From Blasia pusilla (Eukaryota), in assembly GCA_050084515.1 (NCBI GenBank), contig CM114271.1, positions 12,028,001 through 12,092,000 on the forward strand: DNA of 64,000 bases, written 5' to 3'. Each line of letters starts with the position of its first letter. Position 1 is the first letter of the stretch. The notes below the pieces were generated by a model. That model had not been told where the DNA came from. It searched no databases and saw only the letters and a program-made list of their open reading frames with translations. Position numbers and translations under genes: made by a program. Positions 10,994 through 64,000 of this stretch are shown piece by piece.

Positions 10994-12336
10994 GCAGCAT
11001 GCTGGTGAAAGAAGCCTTTGGAGGTCTGCACTTGAATGAGTTCCTGGGTTTTGGCTTTAGGTTCTGGATTTGCGTAGCAATTTCCTGAGTTCACCCAGGA
11101 ATGATCTGGTCTGGTCTAACAAGGAGATGCCACCAGAGGTGCCTTGCTTGGAGGTAGGTTGTTAGGTTGTATCTGGATGACAATATTGAGAGAAAGGTTA
11201 GGAGACTGAAGGTGAAGAATGTTACGGAGATATCTAGGGCATGATGTTGACTAGTGGCTTGAAATAGATATGGGGGATCTATTAACTTTTGTGGATATGG
11301 CCATTGTAGATGAGGGTGTAAATTCTACTAGATCATAAATTTGATGTTGATGGCATTTTGTTGTCAAATCGAATTGTGTGCCCCGCTTTCCTAGTCTACA
11401 GAATTTGCGGATTGAGTGGTGAAATCAATTTCGGGCTGAAATGGTTGTGCTGTGTGGCCAATTGCCTGCTCGCAAACATTCTCTGTATTAATAAAGTCAT
11501 ACTAAGACAATCTGACTGTGAAAGGAATTTCAGATAAATTGGAGTGTTGTGTTCACAATTATTCAGCATTTTGGATGTAAATGTAAAGTGCTTGTTAATC
11601 TAGTGGTCGTTGTCGGTGCACTCTTCACATTAGGAAAACTTCTGATTGGAACTGTAAACGAGCAATGTAGAATTCCCGAGGAGAGAAATTCTGTGCCATC
11701 TCTTCAAAGACCCCTTCTCCCTAATTTTTAATCTGTAAATAAAAATTTTGGAGTATATCTCCTTCCGCGACTATTCTTCCTATATACACCAACCACATAG
11801 CAACCTTAAAACTTCTGAAGTGGTCGCATGATTGTGAAGAAAACATTTATTTTCACTAAATTCTAGTAACTTCGAAATTGTGCAGTCTTCAAATGATGGG
11901 GAATCTCACATTTTCTTTCAAGACCTTGCCTCTCCTAGCCATATTGTTATTGTAGTTTCATAAGAGAAAATTCTGTCGTTATATTGACGGAAAATAAAAC
12001 AAAATGCCTCTTCAAAGGGGGTTGGACAGATTCGCAGGAAAAAAAAGAACTCTCATGCTCACCGATTCAGTGATACACCAAACCATGCATGAGCTCTGGC
12101 ATCTTATGATGCCCTCGACAAAGAATTTGGAGTATCACAAGGTAGTACAGTCTGACCTTGTGTTACTGCCATATGTTAGATTACTAGGATACTGATTGCA
12201 TTGTCGAGAGTACACAAGCTAGATGCAATCTCCACCACCAAATAGCTCAATCATCAGACTGGACATGCCAAACAAATATCCCCATCCTCGTTGGGCTAAG
12301 GCGAGAATCAGTTAAAACTTTAACGCAAGGAAGCTT

Positions 12337-18300: not shown

Positions 18301-21297
18301 ACTACTTTCATACCTGAATATCACTTTGAGTGACTGTAACTCCTTCTAGATCTTCTCGTGAGACACCTGTAATGTCCGTTTTGTAATTTGACACCTTTTT
18401 GCTTGGCCGCACCAAGGTATCCAGCAACGTCTTTATCACATGTAGTGTAAGTGTAGCAGTGGTCACTTCCAAGATTAAGATTCTCTCCCCAAAACACTAG
18501 ATGAACCTTGATGCCAGTTATTGCAGACTTGTTCCAGATGCAATCAATCTCTACTGATCAAGTTTTAATCTCTGAAACTTACTAGTGCTGATACAGAGCT
18601 TCATAATTGAATGAGATTTGCTGCTTACACTTAAATCACGGTCAACTACACAGACACGAACGACTTCCAAAGTTCCATCTTCACAGTTCACCATTTCGCA
18701 ATCGAGTCCAACCAACTTTGTAGGAGTGCTCAATTCTTTTCTTGTTGCACTCTCTGAACGTATCCAGCCCTAAAAGTTTGCATAATTCTCACAGTTGGAA
18801 CCATTACAAGACCTCACTCCAAAGACTGAGAAGACACACATGCCTTACATTTCTAGAAAACGGACAATCTTCAATGGTAACATAATCCAATATTGGCGAT
18901 ACTGTATCCAAGATGATCAGAGACAACTATCTGGTTCATGCAGGATTCAATATCCACATAAATTATAACCAAAACATATGCCTGGTGAATGAATTCCACC
19001 TTGAGTAACTATCCATACATCACACTTATAACATACCTCATTATAGGAGTAGAACGTGTAGTTCTGCTTGTATCCTGGGTGCTCCCTAGTGAGTCGCACA
19101 AGCTCCTGTACAAGGAACAATTCTCTCTCAAGTAGGCTTACATCCTACCCCAACCAAATGAATAACAACATACTGTTTGAACATCACTACGAAGCTCCTG
19201 TAGAGAAGGAATAGCACCATCTGAGAGTGCAACTGGACCCATACAAATCTTCTTGGGAACTGCATGAACCAAAGGAGCATGCGATCCAGTGCTTGAAAGT
19301 GTAAGGAAATGAGACAACTTAAAGCCTGTAAAAGTAGATGTAGAGGGTATCGGAGACTGAAGAAATAGCACCATCTGAGAGTGCAACTGGACCCATACAA
19401 ATCTTCTTGGGAACTACATGAACCATCGGAGCATGCAATCCAGTGCTTGAAAGTGTAAGGAAATGAGACAACTTAAAGCCTGTAACAGTAGATGTAGAGG
19501 GTATCGTAGACCAACGCTGGACACAAAAATTTACAAATCTTCGGGAATAATCTTACTCATTATTACTAATTAGTTCTTGGCATACACGCTATGCAATGCT
19601 ATGCCCTTCATTCATCAGCACCCCCTTCCCATAGAGATTATTTGAGCAAGTCATCACAACATCTTCACAAGCATGGCTTTTCCTAGTTGTCTTTTGAGAT
19701 AAAAACTAAGATGACCACAAAGACCCAAGCATGGAATTGGGTATGGCAATATCCACCAATTTTGATACTACGCAGAAAGCTATCCCGCAGCTCTAGTGAT
19801 TCCACCACCATATGAACAGATGTAAGAGCACATGACAGAGACTCAATTAAGTACTTTGCATGCTGACCTCTTCAGGGGTGTCAGGTCGGGATTCCTCTGT
19901 TTCTACCATCTCCATGTTCCGATTGTGCTTCATCCACTCTCGGACTTGTTTAGCCATCTAAGATCAGAGTGCATAATATTTATTCCAACATGTATTAACT
20001 TTCCTGTCAAACACGCTTTTGTATGAACACAAAAAAACAATTAAATCTACCTACATTCCTTTTGAGAGTACACAAGCACTTTGAATAGAATTGGTCACCA
20101 GAGAAGTGTCAAAAAAAGGAAGTTGACAAACGAACCTGAAGGTCCTTTTCATCTTTCCAGGTCTGTACAAAAGATGCGAGGACATCCCAAGGTCTCTTGG
20201 CAGGATCATGTTGCAAGCTGCTTTTGTCAATACTGGCCAAGAATTGTTGCCAGGGACCCTTGGTTCCACTTACACCTTGCCACTGAGCCTGCTTAACAAT
20301 TTTCACAAGATCCTGCAGAAGGGAAAGATCATCAAGAATAATCAGAACAAGATTGGACACCTGGAACCACATACTTTATCCCCATGTGCACTGAAACATA
20401 CAAGATATTTCTGTCAAGAATAAACTTCATTCTCCGTTAAATCACTCAAGTCGTGCTGATATTGTCAAAATAATTCAGCAACGCTACAAACTTCCCTCGT
20501 CCCAAGGTAGGGACGTAGTCAAACCCATATTTAAGTGCTATTGGGCATGTAGAGGAAACAGTACCTGAACCACCCTAAACCCTAAATGACACCCTCCTCA
20601 GGTTTCTCCCATTTTTTTTGGAAACTTTCCACGAAAGTAATCCAACTTCTACTTGTACAGTTGGTACGAGTGAAAGATAGTAAACAGTGACATGGCCACA
20701 AAAAGAGCAAAATATCACCCTCACTTTTCAGAGTCTCTGCTACAAATCCTACGCCAGTCAGCCGCTCATTATCTTTGACAAAAATTTGAAAATTAGACAC
20801 TGTGGCCTCTAGGGCACAAATCGCTGCACAGAATTGAGGGACCAACAAGGCAGTCCGCCAATCCTGTGATATCGATTGCTCTTACAATGAGCGTGATCTC
20901 CACCTTGAGGTGCTGCTCCGTTTTGCAAGACCTCTGGGCTTCTTTCTTTTTACGTAAAATCTTGCCAGTCCTGTCATGGACCGACTTTGACAGCTTCCAG
21001 CACTTAAAGCTCACGATCAATTTGAGAGACGACAACGGCACATACGAAGTAGCAACAAGTCGACTTGAGATGACTTTGGTGCTTGAATCACGCAAAACCG
21101 GGAGATAAATCACCGTTTGTAATTCGCCGCGACAAACTTCAATCACGAGATAGATCGGATAAAACCTGTGCCAAATACTTAAACACAACCATTGAATTCA
21201 GTATGCACAGACAGATAGACAGAGAGAGAACCTCTTTATCAGCTTCAGTAAAGCCGCCTAGTGACTTCAATCGTCCTATTGATCTCATCTTCTTCAT
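12337..21297 (-). CDS. SDN: Small RNA degrading nuclease (SDN1/2/3-like DEDDh 3'-5' exoribonuclease with RRM-like C-terminal domain), ~530 aa, 12 exons: 21297-21232, 20312-20136, 19957-19868, 19105-19037, 18769-18629, 18430-18314, 18148-18079, 17821-17721, 17479-17351, 13924-13817, 13268-13152, 12744-12337
   Basis: All junctions are GT-AG and in phase. SDN N-terminus TEADKEDLVKIVKQAQ...GTKGPWQQFL...DPAKR; ExoI LDCEMV, ExoII GHSVHNDL, ExoIII HNCLVDA; RRM-like DLSKLLIHRVP...VFKSQEEANKAF...DTCGRLQK. The start codon is the least certain part. Confidence 0.92.
12904..13094 (+). mobile_element. Non-autonomous Helitron (~190 bp) in the last SDN intron
   Basis: 5' TCTATATTATTAAAA after an A; 3' GC-rich hairpin CCCTTGC-GGA-GCACGGG then CTAG followed by T (A|T insertion, no TSD). 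Confidence 0.75.
14073..17160 (-). mobile_element. LINE family B (5'-truncated RT-encoding copy plus stacked 3'-end copies) in the SDN intron 17350-13925
   Basis: RT motifs LFKKG...NYRGITLLS, QTGFR, FLDLKKAYDTV, GVAQRCPLSP, MFADD, YLGI. C-terminal CALC...HYLVSC. The 3' terminus (TACTCATTAAGCAGTG on +) recurs at ~14073, ~14632 and ~14920. Confidence 0.9.
19210..19511. repeat. Intronic tandem duplication, ~154-bp unit x2
   Basis: AATAGCACCATCTGAGAGTGCAACTGG... starts at 19210 and again at 19364. Confidence 0.9.
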
Positions 21298-22867
21298 TTC
21301 CGGACTCGCTTAAGAAAGCTTCCGTCTCTTAGGTTGCCACCAAACCGAGCAACCAAAATACAATCCCTCAGTAAATTACAGCGCCTGCGTCGGTTTCAAC
21401 CATTTCTATTCCCTCGTCATATCTCGTCTTGCAATCCGTCTCCATGGCTGTCCTCGACACCACCGCACTCTGCGTGTGATTAAACCCTTCCCAACCTTAT
21501 TACCACGGGCAACCTATCGTTGCCCCTGATATGACATGAAACTTGAAAAAATTGGGTACGGAGGAACGGTACGCACCTCCAGCCGAGACCCCGGTTTATA
21601 GTTCGTAGACCCGAAACGTCACTAAATCTATTTCATTCATGCTTTCTCAATATGAGGAAGAAGAATTTTAGCCCCATCTTCTTTCTTTTAATAGTATAGA
21701 TTTTGAATTATCCCTTTGAAATTTAGATTGATTTGAATGCATATAAAGAAGAGGGATTTGAGAGGAGAATTAATTGTTAATATTAAGAATATAAAAAAAG
21801 TTTGAGGAACTAATGTATAAGGAAGATTAATGACGTTACACATGAATTCAAAAAAAACTCTTGATGTCCATAGTTGTGAATTTTTTTCTTGTTGCCTAGT
21901 TATCATGTGTCAAACAGAGACGTGTTTGCAAATCAAAAAGGCACTCTCCAAAAGAATTTAGACTTGTAAGATACTCATACGATGAACGGAAAATAAAAAA
22001 GTGTTTGAAGGGATGATTAATGCTCCACACAAATTCAAACTCTTTTCTTCCTTCCCATAACACGTGAAACATTTTTTTTCTTGCGAAATTACCACGTGGT
22101 AATAGGGCCTTAAAAAATAGGTGTCAATAAAAAATTTTAATAATGTTTAAATTTTCAATTTTTATTTAATTATAAATTTAAATATAATTTCCATTTTTTA
22201 AAACATTAAAAGAGTAAGAAATTTTCACCTTTCAATAATACCCATCTCCCCGAAATAATTTCACTCCTTTGTAAAGGCTCAAACAATAACTATTCTTCCC
22301 CTTCCATTCTTCCCACCAAAATAACATTCACTAACTAAAATCTTAGCTAATTTTAATTAACGAAATTATTTTCCTTTTGCCATTCAAATTCATTTCCCTG
22401 TCCCAAAATATCACATGTGAATTAATAATATTTCAAAAAATGATCATGCTATTTATTTCAATTTTTAAATATGATTTATATTTTCTAAAATCTTAGAAGA
22501 GAAATAACATTTTGCTATTCTTAGTAATTATAATCTTCCATTCAAATTTAAATGATATCCCAATAAACTAAGTAATTTTATCTTTCCATAAAATTTAAAC
22601 AAAATCTACTCCTCCATTAAATTTTTATTTCCTTTTTCCATCAAATATGAATTGAGATAAATTTTCCAAATTTTTGGTTCTTTATCATATTAATTTTATA
22701 TTTTCTTAATTTTTATAATCACATGTTATAATATTAAATTATTTATTTATTTATTTATATATATTCCACTCAAATCCTTATTCGTTTCCTTTGTTCTATT
22801 TCTACCCATCTAATGGGGCTCAAGCAACAAAATTCAAGGATGTTGCCCCGCTATCTTGTAATATTAT

Positions 22868-23223
22868 TGTCATGACCATACGGATTATGTCGTAGAGTAT
22901 GGTGTGCTGGTAGAGGCCATTCCTTATGTAGGACCGTAGTGGCTTGGTAGAGATGCGGTTCCATACATAGGGTTGGGGTTACTCACTTGGGGTGACTTTC
23001 CCCAAGAGGGCCCGCTCTTAGGTTGGAGGATATAAGGTGGCTTGCCCTCAAAGAACATCAATTCTTTAGGTTGAGCCTTTGTTGGGAGTTAGCCTTGGTA
23101 GTGAGTAGAGTTCTTGGCTATGGTGTTTCCAAGCCGACCTAGATTCTCCCATCGTGGAGTGGGTTTGGCTCGATTGTATGTGATTGTAAACGTGTTTTAT
23201 GAAGAGGTCTTTCACGGATTTCA
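22868..23223 (+). repeat. Terminal repeat A1 (356 bp; TG...CA; contains TATA box)
   Basis: Direct repeat of 31861-32225 with a few small indels. Confidence 0.95.
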
Positions 23224-23235
23224 CTCAAAGAACTG
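23224..23235 (+). promoter_or_regulatory. Self-priming PBS CTCAAAGAACTG
   Basis: Immediately follows A1. Exact reverse complement of CAGTTCTTTGAG (32052-32063), which lies ~30 nt downstream of TATAA (32023) in A2. No TGG tRNA-type start. Confidence 0.75.
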
Positions 23236-26200
23236 GAGTAGATCGATGGTAGCTTCGATTGTAGATCAGTAGGATCTGGTTAGGGCTGATTGTGTACTCA
23301 GCCGTGGATGTTCGTGGCTTGTGGCCTATGTTGGAGGTGTGAATCTGGTGCGCGGTTGGTTGGGAAAGAAGTGCCTTGCTGAGAGCTTTCCAACGTGCTG
23401 TAGATCATCGGATTTCGTTGAGGGAGTTGGAAGTTATCAAGCATTGAAGATTCTGGTCGTGTTCGACAGTTTTCTGATGTGGAGAGCTTGGAGTGCGGAA
23501 GCTCTGTTGAAGTTCATCCAGATCGGGTGAGAGGTTCCTATTGCTACTTGTATTGTGATCTCATGTGAAGCTATGTGCTCGAGTGCGTGGAGCGTTGCGG
23601 ATTTCTGCGTGCATGAAACTTGGCGGAAGCGCTGTCGGATTTGCGGTTCTAGAGGTGTATGGACAGCAAGTTTGTCTGATTTTTAGCTCGGAGCAAGCAA
23701 GTAGAGGCGGAGTAAGGAGAGGTGGAGTAAGGAGCAAGGAGCAAGCAAGGAGAGGCGGAGTAAGGAGCAAGGAGCAAGCTTGCTTGCTTGGGCGTTAGGC
23801 AATTTTTGCAGGATTTGGGATTTGAGTTTTGCATAACTGGTCACCCATCTTTGGGCTATTCTGCCTGGAGGACGCTTGACTGCCGAGTTCTTAACTATGC
23901 CAGTGTACAGACTGTTGTAGCTCATTTGGTGATGTTCGGAGATGTGTTAGGCGCTTTATGCATCTCAGGTTTTTGGTTGATGTACCTCTAGCGCATAGTA
24001 CGGTGTAGCCTCTCCATGCAGGTGATATTTTCAGGTGTTGCGCGTTCGACTAGCACATCATGGACCCGCGGCGGAGTAGCTATTGCGTTAGAATTGTGTG
24101 GTGGATTTTGTGGATTCAGAGGGCACCACATTTGGTGGATTGTGTTACCTTGATTTCCATTTGCGATTGGAGGGTTGTCGTTGGATTTCCTGTGTTTGGA
24201 TCCCCTCCATCGTGCTTCTTGCTTGCGCGCCCATTGTTATGGTTGACGCTGATTTCTAGAGTAGTGTTACTCCTATATGCTACTGGTAGTGAGGCTGGAG
24301 GGATGACGAGTAGATTGTGGGAGACTTCTTGTGGTGATGACAAGTTAGGTTGCCTACACCCATAGCTAGTAGAGCTAGAATAGTATAGCGACATCGACAT
24401 CACTTGGTAATTTGGTGGTGGTGCGGCATCGGCGTTGGTCACTGAGTGTCAGGTGGTCTGGTTGGGGACCGTGGTGCGGATGGTGGTGGTTTCACACGGA
24501 GTGGATTTAGGTATCGGCTACCTTTTCCACTTCCGACGGTTGATGAAGAGGAGGACGAGGGTGTTCCAAACACCAAGTCTTCTACGTTGTTATCGAGTGT
24601 TGCGGCTCCATTGATTTGGGACATGGACGGTGGATATGGGGCCATGAAGGGCCTGACGATACTCGGGTGCAAAGTGGGTACCATTGAGTTGGAGGACTTC
24701 ATGCAGGAGTTTGATACGTGGTGTGATATGCAGATGTTGAACGGCACGTTGTTTACACCCTTCTTGGCTTGGAAGGGTTGTTTCAAAGACTTGGAAGGAC
24801 CACCCATGGATGATTACCATGAGTTTAGGAAGGACCATGTTCTTTGAGATTGAGGCATGGAGACAATATTGGTCTCCACGCTATGTGTCTATCACCCATG
24901 GTGGTATTGGTAGTAGTGCTCCTACTATGCCCGGCCCGCCGAGTGGTACAGTACGAGCCGGAGTGGGGATACGGTGGAGGTACTAGTGGGGGTACTAGTG
25001 GAGGTACTAGTGCCCCACCATCGTTTAGCCCGGTTGAGAGTTCTTCAAGAGGTTGAAGAAGAACTATCAAGGAGTGAAGACGGAGAAGTTGAGGAATCTT
25101 CAAGACTTTGAGCGAAAAGACCGGTGAGAGTCTTAGTGAGGCATACACGTGTATCGACGCTTGATTTCGATTACCAGGGTGTGACCGAGGATCACCAATC
25201 GATTTTTGGTATGGGATCTTGGACAGAGATTTGCGCCGTAGGGCGTGATGCTACTCTTATGAGTGATGATTCACCCACATTGACCCATGTGTTTGCTCTA
25301 TCTCGAGAAGATTGAGCTTAACATGGTGAAGGAGAGAGTGGTGACATCCGCATTCGAAGAGGGAAACAACTACTACTTCGTGTTCACCGCCCACCTCACA
25401 TCTCGTAGTAGTGGTGGTGGTAGTAGTAGTGGGAGTCGTGGGGGTACACGCGACCTCGTCAAGTCCTAGAGGGACATTTGTGTAGAGACCATTGCCTTCA
25501 TTTGCTGCCCGCAAGCAAGGACGATCATGTTGGACATGTGGAGGTGATCATGTTAGGAAGTTTTGTCCCCAAGAGGATGGGGGAGAGACTTTGGAGGATG
25601 GGCCTCGTCGGCCCCAACTCAGTGTGATCATTGTGGGAGACTAGGTCATCCTCGAGAGCGTTGCTTTGATCTTCATCCGAGTTGAGATCAGGCCCCGGCC
25701 GTGGTGGAGTAGCTCGAGAGGCCGAGGTGGTAGAGGTGGTAGGGGTGGTAGAGGTGGACGGTGGTTGGAGAGCCTACGGTGGCTACCCCTACCACTACGA
25801 CAAGTCCGCCTATGGTCGCCGGGATTGAGCGATTGGAGAAGAAGTTGGCTACTATGGTGGTATCCAAAGATAGATCAGGTTCGGGAGCAGGGCTTCCACC
25901 TCTTATGGAGGGATGATCTCTCTTATATGGCGAGTGCAAAGATGGGTTGAGGCATCAGCTGCAGCGATTCTGAGAGGAGCCACTCGGCGTCGAGCCACGT
26001 GGTGCTCTTGTGGAGTTGGACCCCAGAGGGGTGAGGCCGGGAGGCGAGCTAGGCTTCCCAGTCATTCTTTTTGTCTGAGGTGCTTAGGACTCCATCCATG
26101 GTTCCTACGCGGCTTATTGAGCCGGCAGTGGGGATCGAGGCATCTACATCAGCGTGTAGTAGACACGGATGCAAAGATCTAGTGCAAGATGTGCGGATGG

Positions 26201-27278
26201 CAACCGGTGTTGGGATCCCCATTGTTTTCGCCACGGAGGCGATGGCTTTAGGAGTTGACTTAGCTCTGTATTTCATTCTTCTTGACCACATTGTGTGAAC
26301 GTGGGGTGTTTCTTTGCTACACGTGTTGAGGTGGATGAGGATGTTGCGGTGGAGCGACCCTCTATGTCGGGAGTAGCATTGAGTACTGTGCTACTTAGCG
26401 GCAAAGCGGCGGCGAAGATGGATGCATTACCGGCCCGGCCGACCATTGATCGTGAGAGGCTTACACCTGGTGTATGTATGTTGGACAACCGGAGTGGGAT
26501 CTTCCGATTGGTGAGTCCTACAGCAGGTGTATAGACCAGATAGAGTCTTGTTAGATTCTGGTGCCCAACCTTTGATGTTGGGAAAGGCGGCATGTATTGG
26601 TTTGGGTATTCGGAGGTCAGAGCTTGAGCCTTGCCCATTCCAGATTCAAACGTCACTTGGAGGAGCCAATGATATGTCTCAATTAATGACACGGGAGAAG
26701 TTTTCTATACAGTTGAGACCAGATCATGCGACTGATAGCTCCCGGTTGGGAGTATCTGCGGTAGTCACATCAACCGAGTCGTATGATGTACTAGTTGGAG
26801 GAGCGATTGTACCCGATGGGTTTTGAGATGGATTCGGGTCGAGACAGCGTCTTATAGACCAGGTTGGCAGTCCGGGGATGGACGTATGAGCCAAGTTCCT
26901 GTGAGATTTATTTATGGGGCTCGACCAGGAGGGTCTTCCCCAACATTGTTAGCATCTGTGGCTGGTTTTAGTGGAGTAGTCACTTGGCCAGGAGACTTTT
27001 TGGAGGGTAATGTTTCTGCTATGGATTCTCCTGCGTATGAGGAGGTAGAAGAGGTCCCTATTTTTGCAGCAGTGGCATCCTCATCGTTGGATGTGCCACT
27101 TTGGAGTTCAGGCGGTGCACTACGGCAGGAGGCTGATCGCCTAGTGCAAGAGGCTTGGTGTGAGGCTGTTATACCTCACAAGGAAGAGGAGGCCCCACGG
27201 CGGACTCCTACTTCTGCCCCAGTTGGGTTATCCCCTTTGGATACTACACCCATTGTATGGCAGTATCCGCCGGAGGGC

Positions 27279-28220
27279 ATTTGTGTGTTAGATCTCTTTG
27301 GTGGGATTAGCACTGGTTTGGCGGTAGTGTTGCAGGCCGGTATTCCTGTGCGGAGATACGTGTATGTGGAGCGAGATGAGACGGCCCAGAGAGTCTCATC
27401 CCGACATATTGGTCAGTTGATGCGGAGATATCCTGAGTTGTTTCCGCCATCAGCTATTCGTGGGTACCAGCATGCTTTACCATCACACATTGCATTGTTG
27501 GGGGCGCAGGACCTTGAGAGGGTTGGTCATGTGGATTTGGTGATTGCTGGATGGCCATGTCAGGGTCATACACGTGCTGGTCGTGGTGAGGGATTACATG
27601 ACCCTAGGTCTCGATTGTTTTGGGAGATGTTACGGGTGTTACGACATCTTCATGTTCATCAGGCACGTGCTCTAGCTTACATTCTGGAGAATGTTCCATT
27701 GTTGGGTGACACTCGGACCCGGATGATGGCGAGTGTTTATGAGGTGCGGTCTTGGATTGGACCAGCGGTGTTGTTGGATGCAGCGTGAGTTGGCTCGCGT
27801 GCACATCGTCCACGCTTGTGGTGGACAAACTTGTTGCCTAGGGAGGTTCTACGTCGAGCATATGATGCAGTGCAGCGGGATCCTCGCTTACAAAGTGGAT
27901 AGTATCTTGAATCTTGGCGACTTTCTCAAGTGGTGAGGGTTATTGATCGGTCACCCAAGGCGGCAGTGAACCGTGTGGGCCACCTAGGATGGCACTACCC
28001 ACATTTGTGAGTTTTCCCGCGTCACATGCCTACAGGAAGGTGGTCCGGGGCTTGTATGGGATTCTCATGTGCGGCATTGGGGTTGGTGGAGCCTAACGCC
28101 GATGAGAGAGAGCGTGCGATGGGATTTACTCTTGGCGTAAATGGGTTGCTTCTATTTTTGAGGCTTCACGACGTCATGTGTTGGGTCAAGGCCATGGACC
28201 TGAATTGTTTGACTTGGATT
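27279..28220 (+). CDS. DNMT3-like C5-cytosine DNA methyltransferase domain inside the gypsy pol region (one in-frame TGA, later frameshifts)
   Basis: Motif I LDLFGGI, II YVERD, IV GWPCQG (catalytic Cys at ~27558), VI LENV, VIII HRPRLWWTNL (read through the TGA at 27786-27788), IX ERERAMGF, X GQAMDLN-like. Confidence 0.93.
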
Positions 28221-31200
28221 TTGAGTCTTGGTATGGCGAGCAAAGCGTCGACTTCGGACTATGTCGTGGGTCTTCCACCCCTTGTAATGAGCTCGATGGC
28301 TACAGGGACGGTAGAGGCATCGGTAAAGCAGGAGAGTAGTATTTTGCATCCTTGGAGTAAATGGGATGTAATGGTTGGGCATGTGGAGTTGGTTGCTCAT
28401 GCTGGTGGAGGAGTTATTTGCTCAGATGATGGTGTAGCTAAGGATGTACCATCTTGTGAGGGGGTTGCGTAGCAGCCAATGGCATCGTCCTCTCCCTCTA
28501 GTGTGCCAGTGGAGGAGACTTGGGAGCCATTACTTGGGCCCAAGCTTACGGGAGGTGAGAAACGACGCTTGACACAGTTCTTACATGCTTATAGGAGTTG
28601 TTTTGCCTTTAGCATGAAGGAGTTGGGTTCTCTGGTTGGACCCGGTATACGGATTGATTTGGCTAGTGATACGCCAATCTTCCGTCGTCCCTATCGATAT
28701 AGTGATATGGAGAGGGACTTGATTCAGAGTAGGATGTTGGACCTTTTGGAGGCTGGATTAGTGGAGTTGTCGATGGAGAGTATGCATCGCCCACAGTCAT
28801 GCTCGCTAAAAAGGATATGCATGGCAACTACACGGATAGGCGGATGTGTGGAGATTACCGCCCTATCAATCGGCAAACCAAGGCCGATAGGTATGCCATG
28901 CCTACACGTGAGGAGATCTTTGATGTGGTGGGGACAGGCAAAGATTTTCAGTATTTTTGGATCTTGGCAGGATACCATCAATTGCCGATTCGGGAGAGTG
29001 ACAAGGCCAAGACAAGATTTTGGGGTGTCAACTCATGGCAAGGATTGTTTGTACCAAAGTGGAAATTCTTACCCTTTGGGTTGAAGAATGCACTGCCGAG
29101 TTTCAAAGAGTGATGGACAGGATCCTAGCAGGGGTTGGATTTTGTTCGGTGTTACATTGATGATATCTTGGTGTTCAAGAACACGGTGGAGGAGCATCGA
29201 TACATTTGCAGATGGTGTTTGAGCGGTTGAAAGCTCATGGTCTACGTTGCATCCAGGAAAGTGTAAGTTCTTCCATGAGGATGTTGAGTACTTGGGTCAT
29301 GTGATCTATCCAGGTGGTTTGGGAGTTCAGCAAGCAAAGGTGGAGGCTATTGCACTTATTCGCGTCCGATAGATGTGAGTAGAGTTCGAGCATTCATGGG
29401 ATTGGCGAACTACTATCGGAGGTATATGAAAGGATTTAGTGCTATGGCAAAGCCTTTGAACCAATTGCTGAAATCAGATCAAGAGTGGCACTGGGAGATG
29501 ATCAAGAGAGAGCTTTTGTGGAGCTTAAGGCCCGGTGGTGGCGGCGCCTATCTTGAGGAGACCTATCGAGGGCGCCCATTTCGATTACACATCGATTGGA
29601 GTAGGTTGGGACTTGGAGCGGTGTTGACACAACATGATGATGGGCACATGGAGTTTGTGGTGGCCTATGCAAGTCGTTCGAATAATGCAATGAGTCGCAC
29701 TATAGTTCATATGAGGGAGAGTGCTTGGCAAGAGTGTGGGTGGCACACTTTAGGTGTTACTTGTTTGGCACACGTTTACCCTTGTTACTAATCACCACCG
29801 CTCAAGTGGTTGATGGAGTCGGACAAGCTTACAGGAAGCTTGCACGGTGGGCTCTTATCTTACAGAGTATGACTTCCGGGTGGTACATAGACTGGAGTTG
29901 CCAACCTTGATCTTGATGGGTTGAGTAGGAACCCATGTACTAGCCAAGAGGATACAACTGGGGCTAGATGGCATGGCGAGGTTGATGAGGAGATGGTGCC
30001 AGGTTGGCATGCATCCGCCTTTTTATGTTGGTTAGGGGTGGACTCTAGTATGGAGGACCACATGATATCTTACTCTAGTCAGAGGGTAGATGGCCAGCCT
30101 TCAGATCCTAAGGTTGGAGATGGTGGTACGGATCAGCGTGATATTCATGACGATGCGTTGGTGTTGGAGTTCCTACGGACCAGTAGGGTGCCAGGCGTAG
30201 TGAGTGCCAAGGAGCGAGACCGTGTTCTTCAACGTGCTAAGAGGTATCGATTGGAGGGAACACATATTCTCCGCATGTGGGAGGATGGTAGAGTACGAGT
30301 AGTGCCACATTTGGCTCAGAGAGAGCGCATTGTGCGACATGCCCATGAGGAGTTGGGTCATTTTGGGATAAAGCGTACGTATAGCTTACTCCTTGGCCAG
30401 TATTGGTGGCGTGGCATGCATACTCAGGTGCAGCAGTTGGTGTCACATTGTATGGTTTGTGACCGGGTGAGGGCATCATTTAATGCCCCTACACCATAAT
30501 TACACCCCTTGCCTATTATGGGGTTGGGTTACCGTTGGAGTGTGGACTTTGCGGGACCGTTACCATTGACAGTACGACATCATCGATATGTGTTGGTGAT
30601 GGTGGAGCACTTCTCCAAGTGGATTGAGTTGGTGGCATTACCGGACAAGGCAAGTGAGGGAACGGCGTATGCGTTTCTGGATAGAGTGCTTAGTCATTTT
30701 GGTGCACCGCTGAAGTCTTGACCGACCGAGTCTGAGTTTTTCAGGGTGAGTTTCGAGGTCTTGTGTGATAAGGCGTTGATTAATCATCGGACCACGTCTC
30801 GAGATCATCCAGAGGCGGATGGTTTGGTGAGCGTGTGGTTCGGGACGGTGAAGAGGGCATTGCGCAAGTATGGCCTCTGAAGGGCATCTTGGAGACTCGG
30901 ATATTCGTTGCCATGGTTAGCCATGGGGTATAGGTTCGATCGCCAAGCATCCTTGGCTTCCTTCTCACCTTATTTTCTTTTATACGGCCGAGATCCGGAC
31001 TTGCAAAGCAGCAATTGTCGGGAGTCTAGTGAGGTGGTGAACCTTGATGACCCGAGAGATGTGGATGAGGGTGTGTTCTCGCGGGCGGAGCTCTTTCGGA
31101 GAGTTATGCCAATAGCCTTTGAGAATCTTGCCATTGCTCAACACGGGGATACGTTGCGGTATGCAACCATTCGGGTGGAGGTTATCGACCATCGATTCGT

Positions 31201-31437
31201 AGGTTCCATGTGGGGACTATGTCTATTTGCAGCAGATTGCCCCGACAACGCGTTGGATGTGACGGCAGCCGCACTATTTTACGAAAAGTGCGTGAGGTGT
31301 TAACTCGGAGTTCTCATGTTGGAGGGTCGTGATGGAGTTGTTTGGAAGGACCATGTGCGTAATTGTGCGCCATGTCATCTTCCAAATGTGGATGGTACTG
31401 TTGACCCAAGCTTAGCCATGATACGTGCTAGCTTGAG

Positions 31438-31579
31438 GTGCATGTTGTGTGGGTCTGTTGGTAACGCAACCCGTATGTTGGTGTGTGATCGGTGTTCTAG
31501 GGGTTGGCACATGATGTGTTTGACTCCACGTTTGGATCTTGTTCCTACTGGAAGGTGGGTTTGTCCTCGATGTACTTAG
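31438..31579 (+). CDS. PHD finger at the integrase C-terminus
   Basis: CMLC...MLVCDRCSRGWHMMCLTP...VPTGRWVCPRC* = C4HC3 with the conserved Trp. Confidence 0.92.
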
Positions 31580-31754
31580 GAGAGGTAGATGACTTGATCT
31601 TTGCATGATATGGATAACAGATGTGCGACTAACGATGGGGCAACCTAGCACCCGGCCTTCTGATTTGGGCACCCAAGAAGGTGTATAGCATGTAGTAGAT
31701 GTATAGGGCTACCTGGGAGTTAGAGGGACCTAACCGCCAGTTAGGGGGGCGAGT

Positions 31755-32331
31755 TGTGGTACACTTGCGTTTGTGGACACTCTCGTCTATGTTATGTATG
31801 TATGTGCGTATGGTATGTCAGCGATGTATGTTGTATAACGATGTAGATTCGCACGACAGCTGTCATGACCATACGGATTATGTCGTAGAGTATGGTGTGC
31901 TGGTAGAGGCCATTCCTTATGTAGGACCGTAGTGGCTTGGTAGAGATGCGGTTCCATACATAGGGTTGGGGTTACTCACTTGGGGTGACTTTCCCAGAGG
32001 GGCCCGCTCTTAGGTTGGAGGATATAAGGTGGCTTGCCCTCAAAGAATAGTCAGTTCTTTGAGTTGAGCCATTGCGTTGGGAGTTAGCCTTGGTAGTGAG
32101 TAGAGCTCTTGGCTATGGTGTTTCTCGCAAGCTTCGACCTAGATTCTCCCATCGTGGAGTGGGTTTGGCTCGATTGTATGTGATTGTAAACGTGTTTTAT
32201 GACAGTAGGTCTTTCACGGATTTCAGTTGTGGTACACTTGCGTTTGTGGATACTCTCGTCTATGTTATGTATGTATGTGCGTATGGTATGTCAACGATGT
32301 ATGTTGTATGACGATGTGGATTCGCACGACA
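31755..32331 (+). repeat. Right-end repeat block B1 (31755-31858) - gc - A2 (31861-32225) - gt - B2 (32228-32331); PPT AGGGGGGCGAG(T) at 31743-31754
   Basis: B1 and B2 are 104-bp near-identical direct repeats, each TG...CA. B is absent from the left end. Confidence 0.93.
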
Positions 32332-32706
32332 TTATGCATATATGATCGCCAATTATTATATAGATAAGATGCCCATGCAATGCGTGACAAATAAAAAAAG
32401 TGTTTGAAGAGTAAGCGTATAGTTCGTGAAGGAAAGGGATAAATGATGCCGCACATAAATTCAACTTTTTTTCTTGTTGCTTGTAACATGTGAAACATTT
32501 TCTTGTTGTCCAGTTGCCACATGTCAAGCAGTGAGGTGTTTGCAAATCCAGAAGGCACTCTCCCATAATAATATAGATACTCGTGTAAAAGACACATTAG
32601 ATAATGAAAGAAAACAACTAGTGTGTGTAGAGGTTGTAATTTAAAAATCTTTAAAATTTATTTAATAATTATAGAAAATAATTTAAATTCATAGACTTGT
32701 TTAATA

Positions 32707-35700
32707 CCTATATAATTAAAAGAGGATGGGGTTTGAAGAAACCTTCCTTGACACGTATATTTTATGTTCTCCTCTGACATGGACACATGTTATATTTAAC
32801 AAAAGCAATCTGCGGCCTCTGTGACTGATGGAGAAGAAAGTAATTAACATATATGTTTATAGGACACGTGGATAGTCTAGATGGCCGAGAAAAAAAAACA
32901 ACGAGAATTTGTAGAGGCCGTAAAAACTGAATGAATTAGTCATAGATTTAACTATGTCTTTCACCCTTAATATTATGTTTGAGAATGAGATTAGAAGAAA
33001 CATGTGTCCTTTTAAAGTCTCATGACAACCTTTTATTCTTAATACATCTCCTTTAAGAATACTTAAATAAAGGGGAAATTGTCCCCCATCCACAGCACGG
33101 GCGACGGTTTAATATATAACATAAAAGTAATAATATAAATTTTTGAATATTGCTATTGGATTTCTCTGCACGAAAGCTCAAATTCATCCCTTCCCCAAAC
33201 TCCGCGCGAGAGGTTGACAAAATGCCGTCTAGTTCAAGTACGTGGCCAAAGTCCACCGTCCATCCTCAAACGTCCACTACTACTTAGAGTTACTGCTGGT
33301 CCGCCACGGAACACGTGCATGCACAAAGTTACAAACAAACCGCCCTAGTAACCAATATGCTGCCCCTTTTTAGGGTTTTGAGTTTTATAACCGAGTTTGG
33401 AACCCACTTATAGTCGGGAGTAACACAACATGAATCAGATTCTGATTCGGCAGTAGGGATAGGGAGTAAGTAATACACAACGAGATCTTGAGTAATACGG
33501 CGCTGGAGAACACGAATCGAATCGGGATACGGCTAAAAAAGGTTAGGAATAACATTGTGATACTAGAATTTTGTATCGTATTAAAGAGATAATTAATACA
33601 AGCACTGAAAGGTCTCTTGGAAAAGTCCAAGAGACGAAACATGAAATAGAGTTGTGCGTTTCATGCGTTAGGAAAGTGCAACGTTCTCTCCTAATGCCAT
33701 TCGATCTTGCCCTGGAAGTGGATCCATGTCCGGGGTTGCTTCGATAAATATGCCACCGCTTGAGGAACCTCAACTATCGGAATTCCATATTGTTGAACTA
33801 CCCTCGAGACTGCATGTTGGGAAGTTCCAGCAACAGAGGGATTTTGAAATAAAACATTCACTAAATTTGTAGAAGGTACTTCAAGTCGAATTTGGGAGCA
33901 GTCTGGTGTCTCCGAGTACTTGGGCAGGGTTATTTTTTCATCCAAATCAATCACAAGATTCTTTCCTAAGTGCTGACGCTTGACTTTCCTAAAGTCAATA
34001 TACTTATCAGGTCTCCAAGGGTCTCGTTCAAACTGCTCTACAACCATCTCTATTGGACCTCTCGAAACACGCCCACGAATGTCCCCACCAATGTGGACGT
34101 TTTTCTCGATAGGAGTTCCAACTACGCACCGATTGAAGGCTTCCACATACAATTTCTCATCCCTAGATCTCACAGCGGCTCTAACATAGAGCTAGTGAAT
34201 CGAAGGGCGCTTTCCCTTGGTTACGCCTTTGGTGACCAAGGGAAAGCGCCCTTGCCTGATCTTGTTGGCTTGCCTCAATGAGAGATATTTTTTAACATGT
34301 TTGTGATGACCTCCAAGAGGAATGGACACTCTCGGCTCCACTTGTGTTGGGGCAGAGGGCATTTTCGTGAATGTTGAGTCCCTACAGGAGAAAACTTGTC
34401 AATTGATGGAAGGAACGCCTAAGTGTTCAATGCTTGCAACTCGTCGGAATCCGACGGGTTGCAAGAAGCATTGAGTTGAAAACAACCAACCCATCAATAA
34501 GATGTATGAATAGAACTTGGACACGAGGGGTTGTCTACAACAACCAACTCGGGAGTGGTTCCGATGCGTTGCAGCATGTAATTTGCAAGACAAGCAGCAA
34601 ACCGTCAGATTTCGACGAGTTGCAAGTAGAATTTTTTTGAAAAAACCCGCTTGCAATCCGTCGGCAAATGACTTTTCTCTGCCAATGTTCTTGCAACTTG
34701 TTGGAATCCGACGGGTTGCAAGATGAAATTTTCTCACAAAAAGTAACTTGCAACCATTCGGATTGCAAGATGAACGTTTTTCGGAAAAAAATTGCAACCC
34801 GTAGGAATTCGACGGGTTGCAAGAACTTTTTCCGCAAAAAAGTAACTTGCAACCCGTCAGATTCCAATGGGTTGCAAGATGAAATTTTTTTCACAAATAA
34901 GTTACTTGCAACCCGTCGGATTCCGACGAGTTGCAAGATGAACTTTTTTCACAAAAAAGTAGCTCACGACCCGTTGGATTTGGACACTCCGTAATGTGAT
35001 GCAACCTGTCGGTTTTGACGGGTTTCTTTAACTAGCTATTTTGCAACTCGTACGATTCCAATGGGTTGCAAACTCACACTTGGACCACATACTTAGAAAA
35101 AATGGAGAAAACTCACCTACCAGATAAAGTTTCCCCATTGCCTCATACGGATGGTCCACCAACTGAGCCATAAACATAACTCTTTGTATTTCCCCTCAAT
35201 CACGTGCTTTCTCTACCACATATAAAGCTCTTTCTGGCACTCCATGGCTTTTTTCAAGGTTTTGCTATCCTTCAAGTTGAAGTAGAGCTACATGCTCTGT
35301 TCTCTTAGTCTCCTTGATGCAGGATTTTTTGTAGCGAGTCACAGACTGTTGCTAATGGAAAGCATCCGGCCTTTCCATTTTGGTTGAACTCCCCCCATAA
35401 CACTTCACGCGCGACAATCCATCATCACGGTTGGGCATTGTCCGCCGTGAAGCCATATATTTCACGAGGAGGTCTTTTTTTTTTCCTTCACCACCTCCAG
35501 TAAGAGTAACCAACACATCTTCAAGCTGCCAACATCTTCCGCTTTCACCTCACAGACAAATATGGTTTTGAGACCCTTCTCCACATGGTCGTGAACGTGT
35601 GCACCCATGGTCAACCATCCATTTAACACCTTGTAGCAAATATCAAAGCTAACCCAGCTCCCAAATAGATCTTCTCCCTCCCTCATTCTGTCAATAAGAT

Positions 35701-38700
35701 CCAGGCTGCTAGACGGCCCTGTAGTAGACATTTTGAAGACAGGAGCTCTAGATCCCTCGCCTCCTTGGCCCATGAACTGCCATCTCTGAATGAATGGAAA
35801 CCATGAGTTGGCCATAATCCTGGCAATGACATCCATCTCCGCGGTCTTTCCATCAAGTATTCATATTTGACGAAATAAGTTCCTGAAGCTTTCTGGATCA
35901 GCCAAGAATGCAAGATTTTCCCATAGTTGCTTCTTCTTAGCTGTCATGATCTCCCCTTGGCCAAGGATACCCAGGAGTTGTTCACAAATTTGTGATGCAA
36001 TTGTCAATTTGATGAATCCAGGCTTTAATCTTGGAGAATTTTTATACACCTCGGTCACTTTCTTTGCCACATCCTCCTTGATGTGTCTCTGAATTGCATC
36101 TGTGACAGGATGAGTGCGACACCCAACATGAACTACCAACCTTGTGTACTTGGATACAGAACCGTAGTCCTGCACTATGAAAAAAAAATCCGGACACGCT
36201 CTAACACAGAAAGAGAAGGCTTGACAATGCGGACATCGATGGCCACTCGGCAGTATGGTTGTACCCATGGCGTAAGGAGTTTCTGCATTTTTGGGAGGGA
36301 ATTGGGAAGTATTCATGACTCTGATCCTCTCGAGAATGGGGCATCTTGGACTTCTACACTCTAGGGCTCCAATGCATTAGCGACGAGACGCAATCCAAGG
36401 ACCACATGTGATTGAAGCGCTCGTCCACTGTAGCCTGCACCATCGGTGACAGTCCAATTTTTGGTCCATACCCTTCAAGCACCCTCCATCTTTCTTATGA
36501 GCAGGATCGACAAGTGGAGGCAGCTCAAAAATCAGTTTCCATCATACGTTGCTAGCAACTCATCCACAATAATGTGCTTGAATAGTTTCAAGGGAAGAGA
36601 AGAAAGCAAAGAATTCCCCAAAACTCGAAGCAGGAATGAGTAAGCAAATGTTGGGTCTGACATGTTTCCAACAGATCCTGTGAGATCAACGACATCTTGA
36701 ATGTCCACATGTTCAAACGGGACTTTCCGAGCTTGTGAGTTTGGAGTCGATGATGGATCGGCCAAGCAGTCGTGCCAAACGTGGAGCATGGAGCACTCAA
36801 AGATTCCGAACCGTCTTCATGAGTTGCAGTGGTGATCCGAGGTAGCCATAAACTCTGAATTTTCCATTAGAGTAGGGTAAGAGGTTCCATACTCTGGAGC
36901 CTCCAATTTCCGGTTGGACTGTTTCACCAATCACATCATCCATCCCATCAACCTTGACATCCTTGGATACAAAGATGGTTCCAATATGGAGAAGAAATTG
37001 GAGTGAAAGGAAATTTTCTTCGATAATTTCATGAATGTCACCAGGTTGGGCTCGAATTATCTCCAATTGAGGAAGGACCGCTAGATGACAACCACATGTG
37101 AGCTTCACACAATTGTCCAGTTGGGTCAGATCGGAGAATGATTGCCAAGATAGAGGAATAAGAATAAGAATAAGAATGAGAATGAGAATACGAATGACCA
37201 TAAGAATGAGAATGTTGAATTTAAAGTGCACAATGTTCATTGAAATTCTGACATAATATGTCTGACATGCAGTTGGTAGTTAGGTTGAACCATCGCCAAC
37301 TGACTGGACGTGCCAAAAAGGAATATTCAAACATCCTTGTTGATGACTAGTGGGAAAAGATTTGTCAGGGCTCCTTCAACTCGTGGGAATCCAACGTGTC
37401 GAATAGCCCAAGAGCCTGTAGGATTATGGTGGGGCAAAGAGCCAAAGAGTTCGACGGGTTGGAAGGTAGACTGTAGGGGAACTCCAACCCGTCAGACTCC
37501 AACGGGTTAGAAACCCTCAGGAAGGATGTCGACGGTACAAACCATGGAAGTTTGACGGGTTGAATTGAGTTTGGTTTGGACGGTACCACCCGTTGGATTC
37601 CTTATGCTCATATTCCATGGGAAAGATGTGCCAGGGGTCCTTCAACCCGTCGGAGTCCAACCAATTGCAAAAAGATCGGACTCAAAATGGCCGTCCCTCC
37701 GGTCCAAGCCGTTGGACTCCGACAAGTTCCACGTGGACCATCCTGCCTGACTTATGCAAATCGTCCAACCCCAACGAGTTCCACGTGGACCATCCTTCTT
37801 GACTCCTGCAAGTCGTCCGACTCTGACGGTTTGCAAGAGTTGGGAAGTATCATCCCCCCAGCAACCCATCGGACTCCAACGGCTTCCACCAATTAGGCAG
37901 CCTGGGTCCCGTGCAACTCGTCGGAGTCCGACAAGTTGCAGGAGTCAGGCTGAATGGTCCTCTGTCGGACTCTGACGGGTTGCACGGAACCTAGGTTGGA
38001 TGGACCCCATGTAACCCATCGGGGTCCGACGGCTTGCAGGTAGAGTCCGGGCCGTACCGCCCAAGCATTGGAGTTGCAACCCGTCGAGCTCCGACGGGTT
38101 GCAACTAGCCCACGCGGAACATGCACCGTAACAGTCCACCGACGTGCAATCACTCCCCTGTCGTACACCAACGGTCGAGTCCAACGGCTCCGAAAGTATA
38201 TAAGGACCACTTTCAAGGCTTTTCATTTTTCCATCCTACGGTTTTCCGTTTTGCTTTCAACTCCCTTGTTCACACGACTACGAAAACTGACTTTCCAGTT
38301 ACTCGTACTTTTCGACGGTTGGTCCTTGTCTCTTCATTTGCAGGCTACGACGGTTTGAATTGAATCGATTCCCTTCAGAGGTAACAAAGATTCAAGTCAA
38401 AACCCCTCGTGCAACGTTTGATTGTCGACTAATTAGAGGATAACTCCAAAAAAATCCCAAGCCAGCAAGGTCGTGAGTTTCTCTCCCAAGACCAGTGGAA
38501 CTCTGTCTTCTCGTACGCGACGCACGGCCGCAGATGTACGGCAAGAAGAAATCGAGGAGCGTGAGCGAGAAACCCATATGAGGAAGAAGGAAATGTTGGA
38601 CTTGACACCCACCCAATTTTTGAGCGGGTACATCACAAAACTTAGGATGATGTGCATTTTGCATGGAAATGTTTGATACATACTAAGTGTAACATTTGTG

Positions 38701-63500: not shown

Positions 63501-64000
63501 ACCCTGTAGCAAATATCAAAGCTAACCCAGCTCCCAAATAGATCTTTTCCCTCCCTCCTTTTGTCAATAAGATCTAGACGGCCCTATAGTAGACATTTTG
63601 AAGACATAAGCTCTAGATCCCTTGCCTCCTTGGCCCATGAACTGCCATCTCAGAATGAATGGAAACCGTGAGTTGGCCTTGATCCTAGCAATGGCATCCA
63701 TCTTCGCGGTTTTTCCATCAAGTATTGGTATTTGATGCAATTAGTTCCTGAAGCTTTCAGGATCAGCCAAGAATGCAAGATTTTTCCACAATTGCTTCTC
63801 CTCAAATGCTGTGATCTCCCCTTGGCCAAGGATACCCAACAGTTGTTCACAAATTGGCGATGAAGTTGTCAATTTGATCATTCCGGGATTTGATCCAAGA
63901 GAATTTGTGTACACCTCGGCCACTTTTTTTTCCACATCCTCCTTGATGTGTCTTTGAATTGCACCCGTGATAGGATGAGTGTGAGACCCAACACGAATTT
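60360..64000 (-). mobile_element. Mutator-like element copy 3 (transposase >64000-60757 with SWIM; runs off the window)
   Basis: LNGWLTMGAHVYDHVEKGLKTIF, ERSDAFHWQ, AESVHSS, YVVHICCFPICSSDDF...FPCKY; palindrome array in the intron 62290-62960. Confidence 0.88.

Follow-up and report, generated by a model that had tools for sequence, protein, structure and literature searches.

Textbook long terminal repeat (LTR) elements integrate by the tips of their complementary DNA (cDNA). A DIRS repeat structure combined with Gypsy domains has been described for KnitGypsy-Dnmt3 of Klebsormidium nitens (de Mendoza et al. 2018, Nat Commun 9:1341, PMC5890265, Fig. 4c legend); the main text of that paper, supplements aside, gives no ends, target duplications, priming sites or mechanism for it. 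Later papers refer to such elements only in passing, and a 2026 preprint, in the part of its text accessible to us, mentions 'streptophytes (Gypsy-DNMT3)'. Within the accessible portions of the literature on split direct repeats and Gypsy, on KnitGypsy and on Marchantia DNMT3 retrotransposons, no account was found of the mechanism of a DIRS-like layout with an integrase, and the portions of PMC8557442 and PMC7192593 available to us do not describe a Gypsy-integrase version of this layout. The element considered here occupies positions 22868-32331 of a 64,000-nt stretch of Blasia pusilla DNA (assembly GCA_050084515.1, contig CM114271.1, positions 12,028,001 to 12,092,000 of the forward strand), referred to below as the window. 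It is a new bryophyte-type member of these described but barely characterised Gypsy-DNMT3 elements.

Seen as a whole, the element is likely to be a dead member of a streptophyte Ty3/gypsy family; this family encodes a DNMT3-type methyltransferase and a PHD finger, and would follow the unusual cycle proposed further on. As far as the literature searched goes, its 4-bp target duplications, the conserved internal palindrome as presumed integration site and the self-priming pair are new.

Repeat layout, ends and target duplications

A direct-repeat search and self-BLAST of the window recovered four repeat blocks in the order A1...B1-A2-B2, at the coordinates given by a first reading of the sequence (hereafter the original prediction; Table 1); self-BLAST found no second copy of the element elsewhere in the window. 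According to BLAST, A1 and A2 are 94.8% identical over 367 columns (348 matches, 6 mismatches and 13 gap columns, E 1e-160), and B1 and B2 agree at 101/105 positions (E 4e-45). With slashes marking the boundaries, the full reading is TTAT / TGTCATG...A1...TTTCA / CTCAAAGAAC...internal...TTAGGGGGGCGAG / TTGTGG...B1...CACGACA-GC-TGTCATG...A2...TTTCA-G-TTGTGG...B2...CACGACA / TTAT. The left end thus reads ...aataTTAT / TGTCATG and the right end CACGACA / TTAT, and the B1/A2 join, CACGACA-GC-TGTCATG, brings the same two terminal motifs together around the GC at 31859-31860. The element has a G+C content of 49-52%, compared with 38-41% in its flanks. Related short repeats are found in these flanks (21875-22078 and 32434-32577), 76-81% identical and in swapped order; the site of insertion is therefore locally repetitive, and the window does not allow an empty-site copy to be rebuilt.

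Relatives were collected through the methyltransferase. This stretch matches proteins that are 54-77% identical in Marchantia polymorpha, Calypogeia fissa and Sphagnum, as well as 30-44% identical polyproteins on short metagenome contigs, several of which carry reverse transcriptase, RNase H, integrase and PHD finger on one protein. Scanning metagenome contigs with an alignment of the methyltransferase domain returned 501 pattern matches, of which 422 were relatives; the layout counts below rest on the best 80 of these 422 (635,237 bases). Relative loci are designated by L-numbers. They fall into two subfamilies, with DNMT domains about 37% and about 60% identical to that of the window. A scan of the prokaryote genome collection GTDB gave one useful contig, the distant L081, the other four being Streptomyces methylases. 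Thirty IMG/VR loci, matching at 30-50% over part of the domain and lying on long viral contigs, were taken as viral methylases and set aside.

The permuted layout is confirmed as a property of the whole family, not a one-off or a misassembly. The A and B repeats of four copies gave BLAST matches in 42/80 loci. Self-BLAST of the longer loci showed all four repeat blocks in the same order in L035, L065, L067 and L076, and B...B pairs 453-469 nt apart at the right ends of L018, L059, L078 and L080. Twenty-seven left ends could be read, corresponding to 22 distinct ones, since L010/L012, L031/L035, L038/L040, L067/L068 and L074/L075 share flanks and were counted once each. All but one of the 27 start with TGTCATG, the last with TCTCATG, and an unrelated flank precedes each of them. 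No B lies upstream of any of the 22 distinct left ends, and no copy has the conventional B+A repeat at both ends. The Ty3/gypsy trait of a complete LTR repeated at either end, with integrase sites as its bounds, is thus replaced by A only on the left and B-A-B on the right. Among the 18 distinct right ends that could be resolved, eight read B-NN-A-B and two read B-A, being cut by the contig end or decayed (L006, L036/L037); the one shared by L029 and L030 is rearranged, and the others are taken up with the arguments against the model. The right ends of L033, L063 and L071 run off their contigs and are outside the 18. Right ends finish with CACGACA, or a variant differing by 1-2 bases, followed by unrelated flank.

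The target duplications lie just outside TGTCATG...CACGACA. Both ends are available for eight distinct copies, and five of these show a perfect 4-bp duplication: TTAT in the window, TGTT in L010, CACA in L029, AAGG in L035 and GGTC in L065. In this base composition the chance of a four-out-of-four match at fixed positions is estimated at about 0.005. The B/A join reads CACGACA-NN-TGTCAYG in all ten intact cases, and the halves of this palindrome are the genomic ends of the insertions. Its 2-nt spacer is found in 10/11 distinct joins, L081 included (GC in seven, AC in two, AT in one); the join of L036/L037 is deleted. The start of B and the end of A vary by subfamily, TTGTGG...TTTCA in one and ATACATG...TTCAAT in the other, and subfamily 2 lacks TG...CA at these places. 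The A2/B2 join is very regular too: all four subfamily-1 copies have one extra nucleotide (a G in the window and L018 and an A in L035 and L059), and three of the four subfamily-2 copies have none (L065, L076, L078), L067 showing either an extra G or a T-to-G change. Within five copies the identities of A1/A2 and B1/B2 are 98.3/96.2, 92.3/93.7, 91.8/95.4, 89.6/93.1 and 92.4/92.1%; both pairs are thus about equally diverged, which argues that they come from one event.

L029 deserves a separate description (5906-13445 of its contig, the same insertion as L030). It is collinear with L035 for 6.6 kb, followed by inverted pieces of A and gag and then by A[187-end], extended by 9 nt of primer site and joined to B, with the perfect CACA duplication around the whole. 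It looks like an aberrant cDNA that was integrated nonetheless. Its A/B join consists of the A end, the 9 nt of primer site, AT, GCTAG and B, and GCTAG differs by one base from the final five of the purine tract; the join therefore resembles unprocessed cDNA tips joined end to end.

Most of what the original prediction had said about the ends stands. It had identified the palindrome halves with the integrated ends, as the ten intact joins and 26 of the 27 left ends bear out, and had expected independent insertions to begin with TGTCATG, to end with CACGACA and to have duplications of their own, which is the case in the relatives, with 4 bp each. Conventional B+A LTRs at both ends, named there as the observation that would overturn it, occur in none of the 22 distinct left ends. 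Two details needed revision. The duplication, for which TTAT or ATTAT had been proposed, is the 4-bp TTAT, as the relatives also carry 4-bp duplications. The A2/B2 join, read as CA-gt-TG and likened to a circle junction, does behave like joined cDNA termini, as in L029, but its 'gt' has to be given up: relatives show that B starts with TTGTGG, leaving one extra base, the G at 32226.

Priming sites and coding content

A G-run adjoins the B nearest to the polypurine tract in 18/20 distinct copies read (L022 and L071 are the exceptions), with at least six G, or five in L036/L037. At the other end of the internal region, 15/17 copies tested show an exact complementarity of 9-14 nt between the bases directly following A1 and a segment within A; the complementarity is shorter in the window's A1 (7 nt) and in L039 (8 nt). 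This self-complementary segment lies about 30-33 nt after a TATA box in 19/23 rows, the other four being explained by one wrong script anchor, one differing downstream sequence and two cases in which a second site was picked. The paired sequences are CTCAAAGAAC/GTTCTTTGAG in subfamily 1, TCTAGAAAAACT/AGTTTTTCTAGA in subfamily 2 and ACTTGACAAAGAT/ATCTTTGTCAAGT in L081: they differ across the three lineages and their complementarity is kept, that is, they covary. L071 provides a further compensatory change (CCTAG.../...CTAGG). The site after A1 would thus be a self-primer site of the Tf1 type, the RNA 5' end being placed by TATA spacing alone. Since the polypurine tract precedes B1 and the primer site follows A1, reverse transcription defines the repeat as B-NN-A.

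Other readings of these sequences were abandoned. The bases after A1 do not start with TGG, as a transfer RNA (tRNA)-type primer site would require, and TGGTAGC, about 30 nt downstream of the A1 end, was dropped as a primer site once the self-primer complementarity had been found. A hairpin within A (CTCAAAGAA...TTCTTTGAG) occurs in subfamily 1 and L081 and is missing from subfamily 2, and was not kept as a general part of the mechanism. Short tandem repeats of 33-nt period occupy 23690-23779 of the window, in the leader that separates the primer site from gag.

The domain content was established by Pfam runs on stop-to-stop open reading frames (ORFs) and on whole frames with X at stops. On the + strand, gag zinc-knuckle remnants are followed by a protease motif, the C5 cytosine methyltransferase, reverse transcriptase, RNase H, an integrase with H2C2 and rve domains, and a C-terminal PHD finger. 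The PR-RT-RH-IN order of Ty3/gypsy (Metaviridae) Pol (protease, reverse transcriptase, RNase H, integrase) is kept, with the methyltransferase between PR and RT, and likewise in L081. The methyltransferase motifs FGG, PCQ and ENV are legible in the window translation. Several frame changes have accumulated, with three in-frame stops in the methyltransferase and five in the integrase-PHD stretch; to judge from its reading frames, the window copy is dead. Neither PF00589 nor any other recombinase was matched in its six frames, its minus frames gave no Pfam match, and the scans of the window copy and L081 revealed no chromodomain.

L081 provides the better preserved counterpart. This 9285-nt contig with a 127-nt terminal overlap has intact ORFs, gag-PR-DNMT and RT-RH-IN-PHD, with a lone in-frame stop between DNMT and RT. 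All three of the D, D and E motifs of its integrase are intact in the alignment. For its Pol the closest match is Ty3 Gag-Pol (E 7e-100) and for its integrase core the integrase of prototype foamy virus (PFV), and its methyltransferase finds its best matches among solved structures in DNMT3A/3B/3C; Asp_protease_2 is weak (20.5 bits, under the 24.3-bit cut-off). No tyrosine recombinase was found in its three + strand ORFs of at least 150 aa, the only ones scanned. A run of 26 A is seen at about 8150, in its long leader. The genome bin from which this eukaryotic retroelement comes bears the label Synechococcales cyanobacterium, and its presence there is probably a contamination. Its circular assembly was dropped as evidence for a circle, a multi-copy element collapsing to a cycle in the assembly graph.

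Three statements of the original prediction can be judged from these data. The polypurine tract before B1, and with it an LTR defined by reverse transcription as B+A, holds both in the window (G-run tract at 31741-31753) and in 18/20 copies. A putative priming site does follow A1, apparently of the self-primer and not of the tRNA type. The lack of a tyrosine recombinase agrees with the scans of the six window frames and of the L081 ORFs.

Table 1. Features of the element in the window (evidence or remark in the last column)
Feature	Position	Strand	Evidence or remark
Left target-site duplication TTAT	22864-22867	+	same as 32332-32335
A1 repeat, 356 nt, starts TGTCATG (integrase left end); part of U3 plus R-U5	22868-23223	+	BLAST
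TATAAG box (23031-23036) and decayed putative self-primer segment ATTCTTTAGG (23061-23070), about 30 nt downstream	23031-23070	+	
Putative self-primer binding site CTCAAAGAAC, directly 3' of A1	23224-23233	+	complementary to GTTCTTTGAG in A
gag zinc-knuckle remnants (CxxC...H...C), across two frames	25528-25680	+	translation; no Pfam match in window copy
Aspartic protease remnant (LDSGAQP)	26551-26800	+	translation
C5 cytosine DNA methyltransferase, DNMT3-like, 3 in-frame stops	27255-28229	+	PF00145; 66% identical to Marchantia proteins
Reverse transcriptase remnant, internal frame shift	28758-29400	+	RVT_1, E 5e-4
RNase H remnant	29567-29800	+	RT_RNaseH, RT_RNaseH_2
Integrase H2C2 zinc domain and rve (DDE) core; first D kept, second D and E regions decayed	30314-30800	+	PF17921, PF00665; alignment to L081
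PHD finger, integrase C-terminus	31439-31573	+	PF00628; same position in L081
Polypurine tract TTAGGGGGGCGAG (G-run), adjoins B1	31741-31753	+	
B1 repeat, 105 nt; start TTGTGG (U3 start in reverse transcription), end CACGACA	31754-31858	+	
2-nt spacer GC, centre of palindrome CACGACA-GC-TGTCATG; proposed integrase cleavage site	31859-31860	+	
A2 repeat, 365 nt	31861-32225	+	BLAST
A2 counterpart of TATAAG box and putative self-primer segment GTTCTTTGAG, intact	32023-32028 and 32054-32063		
One extra base G between A2 end (TTTCA) and B2 start (TTGTGG); putative joined cDNA termini	32226	+	
B2 repeat, 105 nt; end CACGACA (integrase right end)	32227-32331	+	
Right target-site duplication TTAT	32332-32335	+	

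Proposed cycle and its alternatives

In the cycle that we propose, the normal integrated form would be A - internal - B - NN - A - (0-1 nt) - B. Transcription would start about 30 nt after the TATA box within A, and the first 10-14 bases of the RNA would pair with the site 3' of A1 by folding back, and so prime minus-strand synthesis in the manner of Tf1. Plus-strand synthesis would begin at the G-run tract just 5' of B1, yielding a cDNA whose repeat is B-NN-A. The DDE integrase would then act at the B/A palindrome CACGACA-NN-TGTCAYG instead of the repeat tips: nicks 3' of each CA, on opposite strands and 2 bp apart, would break the duplex open, giving recessed CA-OH ends and 2-nt 5' overhangs, and these CA-OH ends would be inserted with a 4-bp target duplication. 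Obtaining A...B-A-B requires that the A end and the B start of the cDNA be joined before integration. This could occur by ligation to a tandem-LTR circle, or by a jump of the plus strand, as its synthesis finishes, from the A end to the completed B start. Such a third strand transfer would be directional, as the minus strand would reach the B start early, when no acceptor is yet present, and the plus strand would come to the A end last, with the B start already complete, and jump with 0-1 untemplated base. The absence of mirror copies (A-B-A-internal-B) makes the plus-strand jump the favoured route. Rolling-circle or concatemer routes were discarded, being unable to link the A end directly to the B start.

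Several of these steps can be challenged by explanations that share some of the evidence. The host might ligate the cDNA into a fully double-stranded 2-LTR circle, which integrase would then open at either of two identical B/A palindromes; this would account for the likeness of A2/B2 to a circle junction; retroviral integrases are known to cut such palindromes (PMC1905944, in the part accessible to us), and the six distinct A-internal-B copies could stem from cutting at both palindromes or from 1-LTR circles. Such a circle would present the two palindromes in identical surroundings over at least 100 bp on each side, and should thus give the mirror A-B-A-internal-B about as often, but none is seen among the 22 distinct left ends, against ten B-A(-B) right ends. 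The A/B join, with one nucleotide in 4/4 subfamily-1 copies and none in 3/4 subfamily-2 copies (L067 being ambiguous), is also too regular for error-prone end joining. This route is accordingly judged possible, if rather unlikely. The original prediction, which had the cDNA circularise and integrate at an att site internal to the LTR, is thereby upheld as to the internal site; its circle is unproven, and in its simplest form is at odds with the missing mirror copies.

The remaining explanations fare much worse. A tyrosine recombinase supplied in trans, as in DIRS/PAT/Ngaro-style integration, with the DDE integrase idle, would be suggested by the repeat layout, which is the one described for tyrosine-recombinase retroelements in the accessible parts of PMC5890265 and PMC7192593. 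No recombinase domain is encoded in the frames and ORFs scanned in the window copy and L081, and the L081 integrase has kept its DDE motifs. Moreover, TG...CA ends with 4-bp duplications are the mark of DDE strand transfer, and to our knowledge tyrosine-recombinase elements make no such target duplications, so that this explanation is very improbable. The same can be said of the view that the true LTR is A+B (TG...CA), its 5' LTR having lost B and B1 being an unrelated internal duplicate. A2-B2 does start with TG and end with CA, with short inverted termini and a flanking duplication; yet the plus-strand tract adjoins B1 and not A2, the primer site adjoins A1 and not a B, a B after A1 is found in 0/22 distinct left ends, and TG/CA, kept at the internal join, is missing from the B start and A end of subfamily 2. 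Nor can A2-B2 be a separate solo insertion, given the constant 2-nt spacer and the duplication around the whole element. Finally, the single copy in the window might in itself be put down to a one-off rearrangement of a conventional element or to an assembly error, but the same layout recurs on many contigs, in separate assemblies and in two subfamilies, each time with its own flanks and duplications, and this last explanation is hardly tenable.

Some observations weigh against the proposed cycle. No mirror layout, A1 followed by B-A, exists among the 22 distinct left ends: either a step is missing from the model, or one of its steps is asymmetric. Mirror copies may also collapse fast to A-internal-B, their 290-340-nt repeats being only about 110 nt apart. 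A single tract-proximal B followed by flank is seen in 6/18 distinct right ends (L010, L020, L027, L049, L060, L069), to which the odd right end of L022 adds a seventh, single-B-like case. These A-internal-B copies may be primary products, both palindromes of an unjoined cDNA having been cut, or may result from later B1xB2 deletion; they are expected to be dead, because their RNA would be without the second A. The duplication matches at three of four bases in L022 (CTTA/CCTA) and L076 (ATTA/ACTA), and at none of four in L067. L067 also has the widest gap between its pair identities (A1/A2 85%, B1/B2 94% by BLAST), a pattern that recombination would produce by bringing in its left part from another copy. 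Every bryophyte-type copy examined is degraded; the circular intermediate is plausible, and the cycle as a whole is reconstructed from integrated fossils.

A wider proposal can be offered tentatively, with more doubt than conviction. It holds that a streptophyte-wide DDE-integrase lineage has moved its integration sites from the cDNA tips to a templated palindrome inside the LTR, through a directional joined-termini (tandem-LTR) intermediate and possibly a plus-strand third transfer. If true, split direct repeats would result from reverse transcription combined with an internal att site, regardless of the recombinase, and the family would be the missing mechanistic link from ordinary LTR elements to the PAT/Ngaro/DIRS layout.

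Surroundings, significance and comparison with known systems

Other repeats are present in the window. A Ty1/copia-type element at 3506-8496, on the minus strand, has RVT_2, retroviral SH3-like and Pol beta-barrel domains on its minus-strand ORFs, and its flanking direct repeats (3506-3805 and 8197-8496) are 100% identical over at least 300 nt; it is young and conventionally built. A dispersed repeat of about 2.2 kb occurs at 33768-36008 and 61626-63873, 27.87 kb apart, with 85-93% identity in blocks. A 153-154-nt unit is present in two tandem copies, 95% identical, at 19205-19511.

The fossil insertions of the Gypsy-DNMT3 family point to a normal DDE integrase acting at an internal palindrome, and to a joined-termini copy needed for the survival of the element. 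This provides a concrete model of a layout that had been linked to tyrosine recombinases until now. A rationale may be offered, in that self-primed cDNA tips would be untidy, and an internal templated site clean. For annotation, LTR finders that pair A1 with A2 and seek duplications at those borders will mis-bound or discard the family. With a DNMT3 and a PHD finger on board, its life cycle also bears on the interplay between transposons and host methylation.

One of the closest known systems is KnitGypsy-Dnmt3, with its Gypsy-order Pol, internal DNMT3-type methyltransferase and DIRS-like repeats, as described in the accessible part of PMC5890265. Unlike it, the window copy, together with its nearest relatives, finds its protein matches in liverworts and mosses (Marchantia, Calypogeia, Sphagnum) and not in Klebsormidium: no K. 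nitens sequence was among the matches, Closterium and Monoraphidium being listed besides bryophytes, and the likeness rests on the description in PMC5890265. The PAT-like, Ngaro and DIRS elements have the A1...B1-A2-B2 order in common with the window family, as well as a B1-A2 join that holds both element termini side by side (PMC5890265 and PMC7192593, in the parts accessible to us). They encode a tyrosine recombinase, whereas the window family has a DDE integrase, TG...CA ends and 4-bp duplications.

So far as is known, Tf1-type elements have ordinary LTRs at both ends. By its putative priming trait alone, the window family would resemble Tf1/sushi and the plant Tcn1 elements, its site by the 5' repeat being complementary to the presumed 5' end of its own RNA and not to a tRNA; set beside them, it has PHD and DNMT domains and no chromodomain in the Pfam scans. 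Self-priming has been predicted for the moss and club-moss Tcn1 clade (PMC6317226, in its accessible part).

A last comparison is with the 2-LTR circles of retroviruses. As proposed for the window family, a DDE integrase there cuts an internal palindrome made of two abutted element ends, and PFV integrase reportedly cleaves the palindromic LTR-LTR junction of such circles. HIV-1 integrase tetramers cleave a palindromic LTR-LTR junction internally (PMC1905944, in the part accessible to us). The retroviral palindrome consists of joined cDNA tips, and the reaction is a side path; the window family, by contrast, has its palindrome within the repeat defined by reverse transcription, passes it on through the RNA and apparently uses no other integration site.

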